Positions 37,082 through 45,910 are shown, counted from the first letter of the stretch. The stretch: DNA of 64,000 nucleotides from Gammaproteobacteria bacterium RIFCSPHIGHO2_12_FULL_35_23 (GCA_001801465.1 MGXT01000017.1:22362-86361); one strand, 5' to 3'. Program-made: numbers and translations. The notes: generated by a model not told the origin, from the letters alone.

Positions 37082-37201
37082 GCTAATAATTTGAATAGAT
37101 TCATAAAATAAATATTTTATGAGGCTGTTTTAATCAGGTAATCAATTCTATAATTATAATTAGGTACATTGGTGCTGGCAAAGGACTGCAAGAAAGGTGC
37201 A

Positions 37202-37993
37202 ATGATGGTTTTTACTAAAGAACAATTAGATGCTATTATTCAAAATCCCACTGCAAGCAAGTTGCATAACTTCTTTTTTAGAGATCGGGTTATTCTTGCT
37301 GCAAGACAACGATTTAGTGCTTGGTCGGGTGAGCTTAGTTTAGAGCAACAATTGGCAGTTATTCAATTCTTTTTGGACAATAAACCGATAGATGTGTTGC
37401 AAGCTGAAGCCGCGAGCCCATCTTCCTATTGGTCAAAAATTCTAAAAGCGCTATTTAATATAGGTGACGGGCCTGCCAAGGCAAAAGAATTAAGCTTTTA
37501 TTTAATATGCCTTTACCAAAAAGAAATTTTAACACTGGATTTATTTAATAGGTTAACCAACTTTACAGATAATTCAATTGTGATGGCTTGGTCATTACTC
37601 GTGCTTCATGCAGCAGGCTTACTTACTGATGCTAACAAAAAAACCCTTTTTAAATTTGTAGAGAGTGAATATTTGCGAGATATTTTGTATGTTCTTGCTA
37701 GGGAGCATTTGTTAAGTTTATATAATTTTAAACATATTACTAGCTGTGCTGTATTTATACCGCTACATAATTTACTGGTAAGATTATATGACAGTGGGGT
37801 GGTACTTACCCAAGAAGAATTAACACGGCTATTGAATTTAAGCGATAAAGGGTTAAGAGAATATAAAAGAGAAGCAGTAGCAGGAGATTTTTTAAAGACT
37901 TTTAAAAGAGTTTTTGCTGCTGAAGAAGAAGGGTATGGGCTTTACTCTTTATTAGATGACCAAGATTTATCGTCGCCTTTGAGTGTTCCTTAA
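37202..37993 (+). CDS. hypothetical protein (candidate accessory/effector protein)
   Basis: About 264 aa from the ATGATG start (AAGAAAGGTG SD). Helical, Leu-rich, no recognisable domain. Occupies the position where many gammaproteobacteria carry pdxJ/acpS after recO. Confidence 0.45.
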   Translation: MMVFTKEQLDAIIQNPTASKLHNFFFRDRVILAARQRFSAWSGELSLEQQLAVIQFFLDNKPIDVLQAEAASPSSYWSKILKALFNIGDGPAKAKELSFYLICLYQKEILTLDLFNRLTNFTDNSIVMAWSLLVLHAAGLLTDANKKTLFKFVESEYLRDILYVLAREHLLSLYNFKHITSCAVFIPLHNLLVRLYDSGVVLTQEELTRLLNLSDKGLREYKREAVAGDFLKTFKRVFAAEEEGYGLYSLLDDQDLSSPLSVP

Positions 37994-38003
37994 AATAAGG
38001 TTC

Positions 38004-38459
38004 TTATTTAATTTTTGAGGAACCAATAGTATGAGCAAATACTACTTTATTTCCAACTTGAATTTGATGATGCTTAGTAAATCCTGCATTGACTTCAAGG
38101 GCATAGTTGGCGGGTACAGCAGAGACATAAATAGGGCAAGGGGCTGTTGTACAAGGTGACATAGTTTGGACATTAACTATTTGCCACTGATCGTTAATAA
38201 ATAAAATATCTAAAGGAATGAGGGTGTTTTTCATCCAAAAATCTAAATATTGTGATTGCTTAAATATAAATAACATGCCTTGATTGGGTGCTAAGTAGCT
38301 TTGATTCATCAAACCTTTTTCTCTTGCAGTGGATGTTTTGGCCATCGTAGCGATCACTGTTACTGGTTTGGTTTGTGTCATAATTATTAATGAGACAGAG
38401 CTTGCAAAGCTTGTTTCAATTAAAAAAAGACTTAATCCGATAAGAATAATTTGTCGCAT
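38004..38459 (-). CDS. DUF192-domain secreted protein
   Basis: 151 aa. Signal peptide, then the conserved DUF192/COG1430 core (MKNTLIPLDILFINDQWQIVNVQTM..PC.....YALEVNAGF). Confidence 0.5.
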   Translation of the reverse strand: MRQIILIGLSLFLIETSFASSVSLIIMTQTKPVTVIATMAKTSTAREKGLMNQSYLAPNQGMLFIFKQSQYLDFWMKNTLIPLDILFINDQWQIVNVQTMSPCTTAPCPIYVSAVPANYALEVNAGFTKHHQIQVGNKVVFAHTIGSSKIK

Positions 38460-38464
38460 AAAAA

Positions 38465-38803
38465 TTACTGAAAAGGATAATTTAAAACCAGCTCTATTTC
38501 TTGAATTAAATTTTCATAGAGGGTTTTAAGCCGGTCAGTTTCATGGTGTTTAGCAGCTAATTCCAATTCTGCTACACTTATTTTGAGTCTAGGAGTACCG
38601 GTATAGCAGGTGGCACCATGAAGTTTATGGGTAGCTTTTGCTAAAGCCTCAAGATTATTGCTTTCATAGGCTGCAATAATTTCTTTTTTATGTTCAGGCA
38701 AAGCAGCAAGAAGCATGGTAATAAGCTCTTTAGCCATGGCCTTATCATTACTGACGAGTTTGGCGCCAAACTCTAAGTCTATGGGGGTTATCTTCTCAGT
38801 CAT
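38465..38803 (-). CDS. stand-alone histidine phosphotransfer (Hpt) domain protein
   Basis: About 112 aa from the internal Met (the ORF could extend to 38851). Hpt signature around the phospho-accepting His: AKATHKLHGATCYTGTPRL (hHxLKGxxxxxG). Four-helix-bundle length. Confidence 0.55.
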   Translation of the reverse strand: MTEKITPIDLEFGAKLVSNDKAMAKELITMLLAALPEHKKEIIAAYESNNLEALAKATHKLHGATCYTGTPRLKISVAELELAAKHHETDRLKTLYENLIQEIELVLNYPFQ

Positions 38804-39230
38804 AAGCGGTTTCCTGTTTAGCACGATTCCAGTATTCAAGTAATTGCTCAAAACTCAAGTCAGTAAATTTTTTATTTTCTTGTTTTAAAGCTTGCTCTAT
38901 ATGTTGAAAACGACGTATAAATTTTTCATTTGCAAGGTGTAAAGCCATCTCAACATTGGTATTAAGATGCCTTGCTAGATTAACACAAGTAAACAAAATG
39001 TCACCAAACTCCAGCACAATTTTAGTAGGTGGTTGTTGTTGATGTATAGCTTCTTCTAGTTCAGCAACTTCAGCTTTTAAAACCCCAATGACTTGATCAA
39101 CATTTATCCAGTCAAAATTTACTTCAGCAGTTTTAGTTTGTATTTTTTCAGAACGTATCACAGGAGGTAGAGAGCTTGAAAAAGCGGCTAATAGACTAGG
39201 GGCGTTTTCTTTATTAGTGGGGTTTTTCAT
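38796..39230 (-). CDS. mazG: nucleoside triphosphate pyrophosphohydrolase, single-domain MazG
   Basis: 144 aa. Aligns with the C-terminal MazG domain of E. coli MazG (NFDWINVDQVIGVLKAEVAELEEAI ... EFGDILFTCVNLARHLNTNVEMALHLANEKFIRRF vs GFDW..EE.GDLLFATVNLARHLG..AE.ALQKANEKFERRF). The N-terminal MazG domain is absent. Start overlaps the relA stop by 17 nt. Confidence 0.6.
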   Translation of the reverse strand: MKNPTNKENAPSLLAAFSSSLPPVIRSEKIQTKTAEVNFDWINVDQVIGVLKAEVAELEEAIHQQQPPTKIVLEFGDILFTCVNLARHLNTNVEMALHLANEKFIRRFQHIEQALKQENKKFTDLSFEQLLEYWNRAKQETAYD

Positions 39231-41415
39231 AAGTGCGTTTACGAATGACCGAATTAATATTAGGAATTTGATTAATCTTATCTAAAATATGGCTTAGATC
39301 TGCTAAATCATTAATTTCTATGGTAACAGTAATATAAGCGGTATGCTGCTTTTTATTAGTGACAGTATTTAAATTTAAAATGTTTATTTTATCATTTGCT
39401 AAGATTTGCGCTATATCACTAATAAGACCTGCGCGGTCAAAAGCTTGAATTTCAATATCAACTGGGTAAGAAGCTTGCGTTGTTTCAATCCACTCAACTT
39501 CAATAAGCTTATTATTATAATGATCGTCAAGATTAATAATATTTTTGCAATCGCGATGATGGATAGAAACCCCATGCCCTTGTGTAATATAACCGACTAT
39601 AGGATCACCTGGAATAGGTTTACAACAGTTGGCAATATGAGTTAATAAGTCGCCTACACCATAAATAGCAATATCCCCATGATATTTTTTACTAGGTGGT
39701 TTTTTGCTTGTAGCATGAAAAATTTGTGTCGATGTTGATTTAATCTCTAAATTCTTTTGTAAAGCACCAATCACTTGTGCAAACCGCAGATCTCCGTTAC
39801 CTAAGGCAGCGAACATGTTGTCTTGATCTTTGTAATTGAGTTGGAGTGCAAGTTTTTCAAGATTAGGATCTTCTAAATTTAAACGTTTAATTTCTTTTTC
39901 AAGTAAATTACGCCCTTCTTCGATATGCCTTTCTAAATCCTGCTTTTTAAACCAGTGATGTACTTTAGCTCTGGCTCTAGCCGTTTTTAAATAACCACGT
40001 TGCGAAATTAACCAGTCTCGGCTTGGCGCACCTGTTTTAGCTGTTAAAATTTCGACTACGTCTCCTAATTGTAATGCGGTAGTTAAAGGAACTAATTTAC
40101 CTTTAATTTTTGCTCCTCGGCAGCGATGACCTAAATCGGTATGAATATGATAAGCAAAATCTAAGGGGGTAGAACCAGGTTGCATGTCAATAATTTCACC
40201 ATTTGGGGTAAAGACATAAATTCTTTCTTCAAAAACATTTTTTTCAAGTTCAATGGGTAGTTCTTTATTATCACTGACTTCTTTTTGCCATTCTAATAGT
40301 TGTCGTAGCCACTTTATTTTTTCTTCATAACCTGTTGCAGCGCTGCCTTCTTTATACATCCAGTGTGCTGCTACACCCATTTCAGATTCTTCGTGCATGT
40401 TAAAGGTTCTTATTTGTATTTCAAAAGGTTTGCCATCAGTATCTAAAGCTGCAGTGTGAATAGAACGGTAACCGTTCAGTTTAGGTTTAGCAATGTAATC
40501 ATCAAATTCTTCTTTAATTGGTTTCCAAGTATCATGTACATAGCTTAACAAGGTATAACAGTCTTCAATAGTAGGCACTAATATGCGTAAGGCAATAGCA
40601 TCATAAATTTGTTCGAGCCCTACTTTTTTACGTTGCATTTTTCTATAAATACTATAGATATGCTTAGCTCGACCCTGGATCTCACCCGCGATGCCTGTTT
40701 TCTCAAGAAATTTATTTAAATGATTGATAAGAGATTGGACGCGTTCTTCACGATCAATACGCCTTTCGCGAAGATTTTTTGCAATAGTAAAGTAGTTATC
40801 AGGATCCAAAATAGCAAACGATAAATCTTCGAGCTGCCATTTAATAATATTGGTACCTAATCGACTCGCTAAAGGTGCATAAACTTCCATGGTTTCATTA
40901 GCTAAGCGTTTTTTTTCTATATCTGACAAATGATTACAGGTCCGCATAATACTTAATCGTTCAGCCAGTTTTATAATCACAACACTTACGTCCTGAACCA
41001 TGGATAATAACATTTTTCTGATATTATCAATTTGCTTTAATGAGGTTGAAGATAGAGATTGAATACTGCTTATATCATGTAGTTTGTGTGTACTGTGAAC
41101 TAGTTTAGTAACTCGTGAGCCTAGTTGTTCTTCGATATCTTCCAGACTTAAGCCAGCATATTCATAAGCAGGGTAAACTAGCGCTGCTGCAATAGCTTCA
41201 TCGCCTAATTTTAAACGGGCAATATGTTCAGCAATTTCTAAGCTTTGTAAGAAACAAGAGCGGGCATAATGATTGGCACGATCTTCGCCAGCGACTTGGC
41301 TTAAGCTGCAGGCTGATTTAACTAGCGGTGAAGTGTTATGAATTTGTTGCAGCCAATTCTCTATATTGACTGAACCATCTTGATTAAGGGGGGTGGTTTT
41401 ATGGGTTTTTACCAT
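39214..41415 (-). CDS. relA: GTP pyrophosphokinase RelA ((p)ppGpp synthetase I)
   Basis: 733 aa. Degenerate HD (hydrolase) domain, intact synthetase domain, TGS and ACT C-terminal domains. The rlmD-relA-mazG arrangement is as in E. coli. Confidence 0.9.
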   Translation of the reverse strand: MVKTHKTTPLNQDGSVNIENWLQQIHNTSPLVKSACSLSQVAGEDRANHYARSCFLQSLEIAEHIARLKLGDEAIAAALVYPAYEYAGLSLEDIEEQLGSRVTKLVHSTHKLHDISSIQSLSSTSLKQIDNIRKMLLSMVQDVSVVIIKLAERLSIMRTCNHLSDIEKKRLANETMEVYAPLASRLGTNIIKWQLEDLSFAILDPDNYFTIAKNLRERRIDREERVQSLINHLNKFLEKTGIAGEIQGRAKHIYSIYRKMQRKKVGLEQIYDAIALRILVPTIEDCYTLLSYVHDTWKPIKEEFDDYIAKPKLNGYRSIHTAALDTDGKPFEIQIRTFNMHEESEMGVAAHWMYKEGSAATGYEEKIKWLRQLLEWQKEVSDNKELPIELEKNVFEERIYVFTPNGEIIDMQPGSTPLDFAYHIHTDLGHRCRGAKIKGKLVPLTTALQLGDVVEILTAKTGAPSRDWLISQRGYLKTARARAKVHHWFKKQDLERHIEEGRNLLEKEIKRLNLEDPNLEKLALQLNYKDQDNMFAALGNGDLRFAQVIGALQKNLEIKSTSTQIFHATSKKPPSKKYHGDIAIYGVGDLLTHIANCCKPIPGDPIVGYITQGHGVSIHHRDCKNIINLDDHYNNKLIEVEWIETTQASYPVDIEIQAFDRAGLISDIAQILANDKINILNLNTVTNKKQHTAYITVTIEINDLADLSHILDKINQIPNINSVIRKRTYEKPH

Positions 41416-41422
41416 TATGCAA

Positions 41423-42772
41423 TTACCTTTTTAGTAAAGCGATTGATTCCACATGACTGGTATGAGGAAACATATCCAAAATACCAATTTTTTCTAAAAC
41501 AAAACCTTGTTGATTCACTAATACGTTTAAGTCTCTAGCTAAGGTTGCCGGGTTGCAAGAAACATAGACGATATGAGTAATAGTAGCGAATTTTTCAAAA
41601 GATTGCACAATTTCTAAAGCCCCGCTTCTTGCTGGATCTAATAAGAGTTTATTATAAGGCAGTGCAGCCCAGGGCTTTTGATCAAGAGGTTGACTCAAAT
41701 CACAGGTATAAAAACTGACATTATTTAATTGATTATGCTGGGCATTCAGGGTTGCTCGTTCTACAGCTTTAGTATTGCCTTCAACTCCTACAACTTGTTT
41801 AGCTAACGTTGCCATAGGCAGAGTAAAATTTCCAAGCCCACAAAATAAATCTAAAATAAGATCTTGTTCATTGGTGGCTAATAATTCGTTGACTAAATCT
41901 ATTAACTGCAGATTGATAGACATATTAATCTGGGTGAAATCACTAGGATGAAATAATAGCTCTAATTGGTAATAGGGAATACGATAACTCAGTAAAGGAC
42001 ACTCAGTTGGTGAGCCTAACAGATGAATTGAATCTAAGCCTTTGGGTTGTAAGTAAATAGTGAGATGATGGGTTTCAGAAAAAGCTTTTAATAAGTTATT
42101 ATCTGCTTGAGATAATGGTTTTAAATGCCTGAAAATTAAAGCAGTCTTATCATCCCCCACAGCCACTTCTAATTGTGCTATGTCAAAAGGAATGCTGAGT
42201 GTACTAATTAATTCGCGTAGTGGTTTAATAATTTTACCTACTGTGGGATTTAAAATAGCACAGTGTTCAATTTCAGTGATAAAGCTCTTTTGGCGTTCAC
42301 GAAAACCTACTAAAGGTAAGCCTTTCTTAGGGACATTGCGTACGCCTAATCTTGCTTTATTGCGATAGCCTTGTTGTAAACCAACCACGGGTGACATAAC
42401 TGTGTTAGCTTTAACATTGCCAAAGTGTTTAAGCTGTTCTAATAAAGTTGATTGTTTGTGAGCCATTTGTGCTGTATGAGACATATGTTGTAAAGAGCAG
42501 CCACCACAAACAGTAAAATATTCGCAGAAAGGGCTAAGGCGCTCTGGGGCGGGAGAGAGTATTTTGATAGCTTTTCCTTCAGCAAAACTTGATTTATGGT
42601 AGGTATATTCAAATTCCGCCTCCTCACCAATCAAGGTATAGGGGATAAAAGTGGTTTTGTTATTAACAGTGGCAATACCTCGGCCATCATGGCTAAGCCC
42701 ATGAATTTGTGCAATAAAAGTACCTTGTGGGAGCTTGGATTTATGTTTATGGCGCATAATAGTTGGTCTCAA
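41423..42772 (-). CDS. rlmD: 23S rRNA (uracil1939-C5)-methyltransferase RlmD (RumA)
   Basis: 449 aa. N-terminal TRAM domain, Fe-S Cys cluster (CEYFTVCGGCSLQH), C-terminal SAM-dependent MTase (LDLFCGLGNFTLP). Conserved neighbour of relA. Confidence 0.8.
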   Translation of the reverse strand: MRPTIMRHKHKSKLPQGTFIAQIHGLSHDGRGIATVNNKTTFIPYTLIGEEAEFEYTYHKSSFAEGKAIKILSPAPERLSPFCEYFTVCGGCSLQHMSHTAQMAHKQSTLLEQLKHFGNVKANTVMSPVVGLQQGYRNKARLGVRNVPKKGLPLVGFRERQKSFITEIEHCAILNPTVGKIIKPLRELISTLSIPFDIAQLEVAVGDDKTALIFRHLKPLSQADNNLLKAFSETHHLTIYLQPKGLDSIHLLGSPTECPLLSYRIPYYQLELLFHPSDFTQINMSINLQLIDLVNELLATNEQDLILDLFCGLGNFTLPMATLAKQVVGVEGNTKAVERATLNAQHNQLNNVSFYTCDLSQPLDQKPWAALPYNKLLLDPARSGALEIVQSFEKFATITHIVYVSCNPATLARDLNVLVNQQGFVLEKIGILDMFPHTSHVESIALLKR

Positions 42773-42795: not shown

Positions 42796-43527
<732 letters not shown>

Positions 43528-44998: not shown

Positions 44999-45184
44999 TT
45001 ACTTCTTAGCTGCTTTCTTTTTAGAAGGTCTTTTAGCAGCCTTTCTTTTAGCTGGTTTTTTCTTAGCAGCAGGTTTTCTTTTTGCTGCTGGTCTTTTCTT
45101 TTTAACAGCTACTTTTTTCTTAGCAGCAGGCTTTCTTTTTGTAGTTGTTTTTTTCTTTGCAGATTTTTTCGTAGGCATTTCCAT
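44999..45184 (-). CDS. histone H1-like Lys/Ala-rich basic DNA-binding protein (Hc1/Hq1/BpH1/AlgP-tail-like)
   Basis: 61 aa, essentially all K/A/P/R (MEMPTKKSAKKKTTTKRKPAAKKKVAVKKKRPAAKRKPAAKKKPAKRKAAKRPSKKKAAKK). Own terminator downstream. About 200 bp of AT-rich promoter region upstream. Confidence 0.6.
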   Translation of the reverse strand: MEMPTKKSAKKKTTTKRKPAAKKKVAVKKKRPAAKRKPAAKKKPAKRKAAKRPSKKKAAKK

Positions 45185-45394
45185 ATCTCCATGTTAGTCA
45201 ATAAAAATGATAACCACGTAGCTAGTGTATAGGGAAAAATTTGTTCTGCAAACTTTTTTTGCTATTTTTTTCAAGAAAATAGATATTTTTTATCAAAATA
45301 AGTAAGAAATCTTTCGAAATTAATAATTTTTTGTTTACTTATGAGGTATTTTTGATAATTCTGAGAGAGGAAAATTTATTTTTTGGAGGTAAAA

Positions 45395-45910
45395 ATGAAA
45401 GTTAAAGCAAAAATTTTACGTTTACTAGGGATAACCGGTGCACTTTTTTTTATTTTTACGAGGGTTCAGGCGGTAACTTTAACGCCAGTAGGGTATTGGC
45501 AGCAGATTAGTGATACCACTAATAAAATACATAGTATAGTACAAATTTGGGAAGAGAATAATCAGTTAAAGGGCAAAGTTGTAAGAGGATTTGGACAAAA
45601 TGGGCAGCCGCCAAAAGAATTTTGTACTAATTGCCCAACGCAATTTAATAATCAACCGATTGTAGGTATGACGATTATGTGGGGCATGCAATATAATCCC
45701 AATCATAGTCGTTGGGAGGGCGGCCAAATTTTAGATCCTGATACCGGTAATATTTATAAAGCTAATATGACTCTAATTAATGGTGGTCAACGCTTATCTT
45801 TACGGGGTTATATCGGTATTCCTTTATTAGGCCGTTCACAAACTTGGCTTAGAATTCCACCGAATCAAGTTAAACAAGAACTTTCAAAAAATTGGCAACC
45901 ACAAGATTAA
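45395..45910 (+). CDS. DUF2147-domain periplasmic protein
   Basis: About 171 aa from the ATG at 45395 (the listed ORF uses an upstream TTG). Signal peptide, then the DUF2147/COG4731 core (GYWQQISD.....SIVQIWEENNQLKGKVV ... GGQILDPDTGNIYKANMTL). Confidence 0.55.
   Translation: MKVKAKILRLLGITGALFFIFTRVQAVTLTPVGYWQQISDTTNKIHSIVQIWEENNQLKGKVVRGFGQNGQPPKEFCTNCPTQFNNQPIVGMTIMWGMQYNPNHSRWEGGQILDPDTGNIYKANMTLINGGQRLSLRGYIGIPLLGRSQTWLRIPPNQVKQELSKNWQPQD

Follow-up and report, generated by a model that had tools for sequence, protein, structure and literature searches.

BarA/GacS/LetS-type kinases are master switches of virulence and lifestyle in Gammaproteobacteria, and known kinds of protein already include free histidine phosphotransfer (Hpt) proteins, products of truncation that consist of Hpt alone, and single-domain MazG enzymes. 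The full architecture of these kinases (BarA in Escherichia coli, GacS in Pseudomonas, LetS in Legionella) comprises a sensor, HAMP, HisKA, HATPase and receiver domains and a C-terminal Hpt domain, H2. In E. coli, barA diverges from rlmD-relA-mazE-mazF-mazG as its direct neighbour. In the phosphorelay that runs from LadS H1 through LadS D1 and GacS H2 to GacA, the H2 domain of GacS serves another hybrid kinase (PMC4866733), and in Yersinia pestis an rcsD frameshift leads to a small active RcsD-Hpt that alters Rcs signalling (PMC10191623). Here, we analyzed hpt, a gene for a stand-alone Hpt protein located on the minus strand at 38465..38803 of a 64,000-nucleotide (nt) stretch of DNA, referred to as the window, from Gammaproteobacteria bacterium RIFCSPHIGHO2_12_FULL_35_23, the metagenome-assembled genome (MAG) of an uncultured groundwater gammaproteobacterium. 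The gene lies among five minus-strand open reading frames (ORFs) within 38004-42772, in the order rlmD, relA, mazG, hpt and DUF192. A preliminary description of the locus had presented hpt as an Hpt gene appended to a stringent-response operon; a stand-alone hpt does lie there, but comparison across genomes indicates that it is the H2 tail of an ancestral neighbour kinase. We therefore read hpt, with moderate confidence, as the retained 3′ (H2) module of a truncated barA/gacS/letS orthologue still in its ancestral neighbourhood, encoding a free four-helix-bundle Hpt protein that likely functions in a relay.

A mechanical listing extends the hpt ORF to a TTG at 38851 (128 amino acids, aa), a start that we rejected in favor of the ATG at 38803, where the N-termini of nine homologues align and a Shine-Dalgarno-like AGGA lies 8 nt upstream. 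The product is thus most likely 112 aa long. Shine-Dalgarno-like sequences and tight junctions also precede hpt at other loci of our comparison (L002, L008, L011 and L033). A fossil reading frame continuing upstream of the ATG to 38875, considered from tblastn searches with kinase linkers, was rejected, as a stop codon is in frame there. The Hpt protein matches PF01627 at 36.8 bits (cutoff 24.6) over profile positions 1-78 of 84, and in NCBIfam it matches best to the C-terminal end of LetS (positions 791-898 of 906, 8e-20) and that of BarA (803-892 of 920, 3e-15), rather than to any free Hpt protein. Its whole-model scores, 70 bits for LetS (cutoff 1650) and 55 bits for BarA (cutoff 890), are far under both cutoffs, and the gene encodes only the Hpt part of the full BarA/GacS/LetS architecture. 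Judged by these profiles, the window Hpt is a derivative of this kinase family and not a member of it. The preliminary description had framed the locus in terms of Legionella differentiation; the organism is not Legionella, but the likeness of its Hpt to LetS is closer than that description had it.

Comparison with solved structures places the protein in the same family. A profile built from the nine stand-alone homologues matches the Hpt domains of E. coli BarA (3iqt, 3e-19) and of a Shewanella hybrid kinase (3myf, 4.5e-22), while the same profile matches Pseudomonas aeruginosa HptB only weakly (1e-05). The AlphaFold2 model of the window Hpt (pLDDT 93.3) has five helices, and its best Foldseek matches are again 3myf and 3iqt, with template modelling (TM) scores of 0.83 and 0.78. 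By sequence, solved-structure match and predicted fold, the protein is a BarA/GacS/LetS-type H2 domain. The predicted phosphorylated histidine, H59 (codon 38629-38627), opens the phospho-acceptor motif H59-K-L-H-G-A-T-C-Y-T-G-T (38594..38629, minus strand), which aligns with the HKLHG of the BarA Hpt 3iqt; in the form H59-K-L-H-G-A-x-C-Y-T-G-T, the motif is unchanged across the nine stand-alone homologues, which are otherwise 36-66% identical. The HKLHG phospho-site is intact, as had been noted from the single sequence, and its histidine is invariant in the orthologues, so the preliminary description is not refuted on this count. HptB (7c1i) resembles the window protein in being a single-domain Hpt of ~115 aa with an expected receiver-to-regulator relay and a similar fold (TM 0.74), but it is distant in sequence (1e-05, compared to 1e-19 to 1e-22 for the BarA-type domains) and has another origin and genomic context. 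With the H2 domains of BarA, GacS and LetS, in contrast, the window Hpt has in common the sequence family, the HKLHG motif, the helical-bundle fold (TM 0.78-0.83) and the rlmD-relA-mazG neighbourhood. It differs from them in being a separate 112-aa protein, with sensor, HAMP, HisKA, HATPase and receiver absent from both the gene and the 64-kb window, and in that hpt appears to be translationally coupled to mazG rather than forming a kinase C-terminus.

The origin of the gene is best seen from the neighbourhood of its relatives. We collected the best 80 genome loci with Hpt relatives, the top match being 49% identical, sorted by reading-frame length and by tblastn with the window RlmD, RelA, MazG and DUF192, along with 80 metagenome loci; all comparative loci are MAG or metagenome contigs, and trees were built by neighbour joining (NJ). 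The Hpt match is the C-terminus of a kinase longer than 700 aa at 51 of the 80 genome loci, 48 of them not cut by a contig end, and rlmD or relA lies no more than 10 kb from the kinase in 32 of these 48 assessable BarA-type loci. Most of the rlmD/relA-linked kinase loci have the E. coli-like divergent layout (Alteromonadales, Pseudomonadales, Arsukibacterium and one Legionellaceae MAG). The window hpt shares the rlmD-relA(-mazG) neighbourhood that is typical of BarA/GacS/LetS kinase genes. Since barA-type kinase genes are ancestral neighbours of rlmD-relA-mazG, the best explanation of the linkage between hpt and relA, as far as gene order can tell, is inherited gene order plus gene truncation, and not a new phosphorelay into RelA.

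A group of Coxiellaceae-labelled MAGs carries rlmD, relA and the kinase gene in the same orientation, the kinase start lying a few bases past relA, and the L009 kinase has the architecture sCache-HAMP-HisKA-HATPase-REC-Hpt. At this post-relA slot, L015, L050 and L053 have the order rlmD-relA-kinase (928-937 aa)-POT/MFS transporter, and L011 and L033 the order rlmD-relA-hpt (111-123 aa)-POT/MFS transporter, the transporters at these kinase and hpt loci being 75-100% identical to the L011 copy. A further 10 loci have rlmD-hpt-transporter without relA, and hpt is still found beside rlmD at 12 loci where relA is missing. At L043:4190-6406 (+), a 738-aa ORF joins RelA (HD, SYNTH, TGS and partial AH/RIS, without ACT) in frame to a BarA-type Hpt. 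The L043 RelA is sister to that of L050, a locus with intact RelA and a full ~930-aa kinase, at 100% bootstrap in the RelA tree, and the fusion is probably the product of a single ~2.7-kb deletion running from the relA 3′ end to the receiver-Hpt linker of the kinase. As read from gene order and domain content, these loci show that kinase genes at the post-relA slot were cut down to Hpt tails at least two times within the Coxiellaceae-labelled clade.

Other arrangements of the same domains were also seen. At L016:7581-10354, a BarA-type kinase is present as two ORFs, sCache-HAMP-HisKA-HATPase (601 aa) and REC-Hpt (310 aa), resulting from either genuine fission or a frameshift, and protein P0284 (658 aa) has a comparable kinase core and lacks both REC and Hpt. 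Some stand-alone hpt genes in MAGs (L019:5163-12726; L021, L026, L047, L049, L058 and L061) form a separate clade with no relA or rlmD nearby; the order of the L019 type is an icmF-like gene, an S49 peptidase gene (sohB), a cation-efflux gene, hpt, an S-adenosylmethionine (SAM)-methyltransferase gene, a HAD phosphatase gene and the phosphofructokinase gene (pfk).

The window itself belongs to a clade with L001-L003, L006-L008 and L090-L092, in which the stand-alone hpt always follows relA or mazG. The order is rlmD-relA-mazG-hpt-DUF192 in L008 (MazG of ~260-280 aa), rlmD-relA-mazG-hpt in L007 (262 aa), relA-mazG-hpt-DUF192 in L003 (135 aa), relA-mazG-hpt in L090 (249 aa) and rlmD-x-relA-mazG-hpt in L002 (139 aa), while L006 has relA-hpt with mazG absent and L091 has mazG-hpt. 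L001 follows the L002-like order with an additional opposite-strand gene between mazG and hpt (L001:6174-6767, minus strand, 197 aa, no Pfam match), and in L092 an opposite-strand gene (L092:5291-6340, minus strand, 349 aa) lies between relA and mazG-hpt. Since the cluster is interrupted at different junctions in L001 and L092, co-transcription with relA is not universal. The adjacency recurs in relatives down to 46% Hpt identity, which upholds the preliminary description in the synteny check that it had proposed. In the RelA tree, the window clade has 98% support and is placed as sister to the clade with the co-directional kinase.

Together, these comparisons suggest how hpt could have come to its present place. 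In the ancestral state, the kinase gene would have stood next to rlmD-relA-mazG and divergent from it, as in E. coli. The block would have turned co-directional, in the order rlmD, relA, (mazG), kinase, before the window clade and the Coxiellaceae-like MAGs diverged from their common ancestor. Inverting an E. coli-like rlmD-relA-mazG block puts barA directly downstream of mazG, where hpt sits now. Deletion of the coding part for sensor, HAMP, HisKA, HATPase and receiver would then have left an Hpt ORF whose start overlaps the preceding stop.

Several points weigh against this origin from a truncated neighbour kinase. The window clade and the kinase clade are joined as sisters with just 66% NJ bootstrap, and the Hpt-domain tree is unbootstrapped. 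A co-directional rlmD-relA-mazG-kinase intermediate was not found among the 80 genome and 80 metagenome loci. For that reason, truncation in place, which is shown for the sister clade, can, in the window clade, only be inferred, on the grounds of the sister clade, the identity of the domain and its position. HisKA, HATPase and REC were sought by tblastn and with hidden Markov models (HMMs) from BarA-type kinases, and none was present in the 64-kb window; likewise, no kinase-core or receiver HMM matched in the 411 kb flanking 29 stand-alone hpt loci, with the receiver HMM detecting an ordinary response regulator in a control locus. Neither a donor kinase nor an acceptor regulator was found in the window or in those flanks, and a homology search with a related kinase gave 8000 matches, none of which could be assigned to the MAG. 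In addition, a duplicated H2 module from a letS elsewhere would yield the same picture, and single cases, e.g. L043, could be assembly artefacts of MAG or metagenome contigs.

The preliminary description had proposed a phosphorelay wired directly to the stringent response; in this model the Hpt would feed signals into RelA/MazG or carry them out, and co-transcription would exist to that end. Across deep divergence the genes do stay adjacent, their stop and start codons overlapping, and the in-frame RelA(ΔACT)-Hpt fusion of L043 can be taken as a Rosetta-stone-like hint. The two circuits also meet in better-studied organisms, as E. coli has reciprocal connections between BarA/UvrY-Csr and the stringent response (PMC7652899) and the LetA/S and ppGpp regulons overlap in Legionella (PMC5928044). 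However, the ancestral barA-rlmD-relA synteny accounts for the adjacency, and hpt occurs without relA, both at the 12 loci beside rlmD and in the relA-free icmF-sohB-cation efflux-hpt-methyltransferase-HAD context. In L001 an opposite-strand gene stands between mazG and hpt, and in L092 another stands between relA and mazG-hpt. A receiver domain is present neither in RelA nor in the window nor near any examined stand-alone hpt. The L043 fusion is without ACT and looks like a deletion product, and in water the main signal that activates L. pneumophila LetS is reportedly not ppGpp (PMC5928044). We consider such wiring quite unlikely, with inherited synteny and truncation explaining the linkage, and a direct functional link between RelA and Hpt is possible but unsupported.

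Another explanation is that the free Hpt is a modulator, i.e. that a full-length LetS/BarA is encoded elsewhere and the extra H2 competes with it as a sink, buffer or branch point. RcsD-Hpt of Y. pestis provides a precedent (PMC10191623), the third, relA-unrelated hpt context suggests that the module can be an accessory gene, and the docking motif hardly differs from the one in H2 domains embedded in kinases. In the sister clade, though, Hpt replaces the kinase at the same locus and is not added to it, and no genome with both a stand-alone Hpt and a motif kinase was seen among the 80 best loci, which is a weak argument given a narrow search pattern and incomplete MAGs. On balance a modulator role seems rather doubtful. 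The Y. pestis case is similar to that of the window in that a larger phosphorelay gene has left an Hpt-only product, encoded by its 3′ end, that has been retained, and the Y. pestis product alters signalling (PMC10191623). It is different in that it belongs to the Rcs Hpt family and not to BarA/GacS, that the full-length protein is still made and that the event is recent and single, whereas in the window the upstream coding part is wholly deleted, the state is ancient and similar truncations are found in several lineages.

Whichever role the protein has, its conservation was assessed on a larger scale. A profile search of 1.84 billion representative proteins returned 12,723 Hpt matches, of which the best 150 clusters were examined. 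Stand-alone proteins of 106-160 aa (median 118) make up 115 of these 150, 111 of the 115 beginning with Met, compared to 14 that are longer than 700 aa, and H[KR]xHG is found in 126 of the 150. Between the window and L003 or L008, the proportion of nonsynonymous differences (pN) in hpt is 0.26-0.36, similar to mazG (0.27-0.30) and DUF192 (0.36-0.37), at a saturated synonymous proportion (pS) of ~0.8-0.88; because synonymous sites are saturated, pN versus pS is given in place of dN/dS. Given the invariant motif, a pN far under pS, the frequency of Met-started stand-alone ORFs and the Shine-Dalgarno-like sequences upstream, these sequence comparisons show that hpt is kept by purifying selection. 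The same observations bear on whether hpt could be a relic without function, left by a decayed kinase gene and still open by chance. The region is indeed reductive, with MazG full-length, halved or absent and relA absent or truncated in some relatives. A relic, however, would hardly be found as intact Met-started ORFs of ~110-125 aa in 111 representative clusters, with the HKLHGA.CYTGT motif invariant at 36-66% overall identity, pN far under saturated pS, Shine-Dalgarno-like sequences ahead of the start in several relatives and a fold predicted with high confidence, and we regard this explanation as highly improbable.

If hpt is a retained and functional H2 module, the analogy with GacS suggests what it does. 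His59 of the free Hpt would most likely be phosphorylated by the receiver domain of a hybrid kinase whose gene lies elsewhere, and would then hand the phosphoryl group to a LetA/GacA/UvrY-type regulator, as the H2 domain of GacS does for LadS. Through translational coupling, the Hpt would be made in fixed proportion to RelA and MazG. Our literature search found no paper on stand-alone BarA-type Hpt proteins in Coxiella or Legionella relatives, and the recurrent, conserved reduction of BarA/LetS to H2 in uncultured Coxiellaceae/Legionellales-like lineages appears undescribed in the literature searched.

Turning to the remaining genes of the cluster, rlmD (41423..42772, minus strand) is the first and encodes a 449-aa 23S rRNA U1939 methyltransferase (NF009639, 540.9 bits versus a cutoff of 458); the TTG start listed for it may be several codons too far upstream. 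Next, relA (39214..41415, minus strand) encodes a predicted (p)ppGpp synthetase I (733 aa) with the Pfam domains HD_4, RelA_SpoT, TGS, AH/RIS and ACT all present. Its product scores 637 bits against the RelA/SpoT subfamily model TIGR00691 (cutoff 499) and 722 bits against the RelA equivalog NF008124, marginally below the cutoff of 728, yet this is its top match by far. The single-domain mazG (38796..39230, minus strand; 144 aa; PF03819, 31.1 bits versus 22) corresponds to the C-terminal domain of tandem MazG. The cluster ends with DUF192 (COG1430; 38004..38459, minus strand; 151 aa; PF02643, 106.3 bits versus 27), which has an N-terminal Sec-type signal peptide with a hydrophobic N-terminus and an SFA|SS-type cleavage site. 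AxA-like sites and signal-like N-termini are also found in the DUF192 orthologues of L003 and L008, which likewise come after hpt.

Read from the DNA, the junctions between these genes are a 7-nt gap between the rlmD stop and the relA ATG, a 17-nt overlap of the relA stop with the mazG ATG, an 8-nt overlap of mazG and hpt and a 5-nt gap between the hpt stop and the DUF192 ATG, so the five-gene minus-strand order and tight packing given in the preliminary description hold. The mazG-hpt overlap, ATGACTGA (38796..38803, minus strand), includes the ATG at 38803 and has the AGGA 8 nt upstream; with the TTG at 38851 as the hpt start, it would have been 56 nt. From its sequence it is a probable translational-coupling junction, and the overlapping or near-touching stop and start codons make coupling, as had been proposed, probable for the cluster. 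In consensus promoter and terminator scans of the region, matches were no commoner than in shuffled sequence, and none parts the minus-strand genes. No ORF for mazEF fits between relA and mazG in the window because these two genes overlap by 17 nt, in agreement with the reported absence of mazEF.

MazG has a history of its own. Its product matches only positions 118-251 of the 251 in NF007113, which confirms the reported reduction to the C-terminal catalytic domain, and it aligns only to residues 132-261 of E. coli MazG (3cra). It stays below the cutoffs of the tandem-domain equivalogs NF007113 (127.9 versus 208) and TIGR00444 (121.6 versus 148.3), matching from position 116/118 to the end. 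The metal-binding motif E54-x-x-E57 ... E74-x-x-D77 (39000..39071, minus strand) aligns to E172, E175, E193 and D196 of E. coli MazG; three of these, E172, E193 and D196, coordinate Mg2+ in that enzyme (PMC10014863, which cites Lee et al. 2008). By this alignment, the window MazG is without the N-terminal domain and has kept the C-terminal Mg2+-binding active-site residues. Compared to E. coli rlmD-relA-mazE-mazF-mazG and its tandem MazG (3cra/3crc), the window has the same gene order, an aligned MazG 132-261 region and conserved E172, E193 and D196; it differs in the lack of mazEF and of the MazG N-terminal domain, in the overlap of relA and mazG, and in that barA is represented by its Hpt tail alone, downstream instead of divergently upstream.

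Two-domain MazG proteins of 249-280 aa precede hpt in L008 (9157-9999), L007 (9204-9992) and L090 (2506-3255), and short ones are found in the window (38796-39230), L001 (5762-6181), L002 (6589-7008) and L003 (1527-1934), with mazG absent in L006. Because L007, L008 and L090 have a two-domain MazG before hpt, the hpt linkage is older than the MazG truncation. In the RelA tree, L008 with its full MazG is sister to the window with its short MazG at 100% bootstrap, and the more distant L001 and L002 are also short; from this distribution, the N-terminal domain was lost independently at least two times. The losses all end near the same residue and all retain the overlap with the relA stop. The mazG truncation is apparently separate from the history of hpt and recurrent, and it provides natural evidence of the dispensability of the N-terminal domain. 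The nearest MazG homologues, P0015 and P0016, have a single domain and are encoded in unrelated contexts.

Outside the cluster, adk and a DUF2147 gene (window 42814-43527 and 45383-45910) flank rlmD, as they do in the distant relative L002 (904-2297), and the synteny therefore reaches past the five genes. On the other side, a 274-aa ORF (37169-37993, plus strand) converges on DUF192 with the stop codons 10 nt apart; it falls into no Pfam family and its sole NCBIfam match is sub-threshold, and no terminator-like structure was found between the two convergent genes. A 61-aa ORF at 44999-45184 (minus strand) consists nearly entirely of Lys, Ala and Pro (KKSAKKKTTTKRKPAAKKK...), has no Pfam match and recalls bacterial histone-H1-like proteins.

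At its most general, the locus illustrates how ancestral gene order, preserved as a fossil, can look like a striking ‘operon extension’, a point that matters for function prediction from guilt by association. A more far-reaching possibility is that, with the LetS/BarA sensor discarded and H2 kept under the relA operon, a LetA/Csr-type switch in this lineage and its relatives is gated by expression of the stringent-response operon in place of a dedicated membrane sensor, possibly via direct RelA-Hpt contact, at which the L043 fusion hints. We hold this to be improbable, but if true, it would be a previously unknown merger of two global starvation circuits during genome reduction. What the comparisons do suggest is that several uncultured, mostly Coxiellaceae/Legionellales-like lineages repeatedly reduced a BarA/GacS/LetS-type kinase to its last 110 residues and then conserved them. 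If so, the H2 module would function in its own right, most plausibly as a hub that serves other kinases, and the Csr-type switch of these bacteria would be wired unlike the textbook version.

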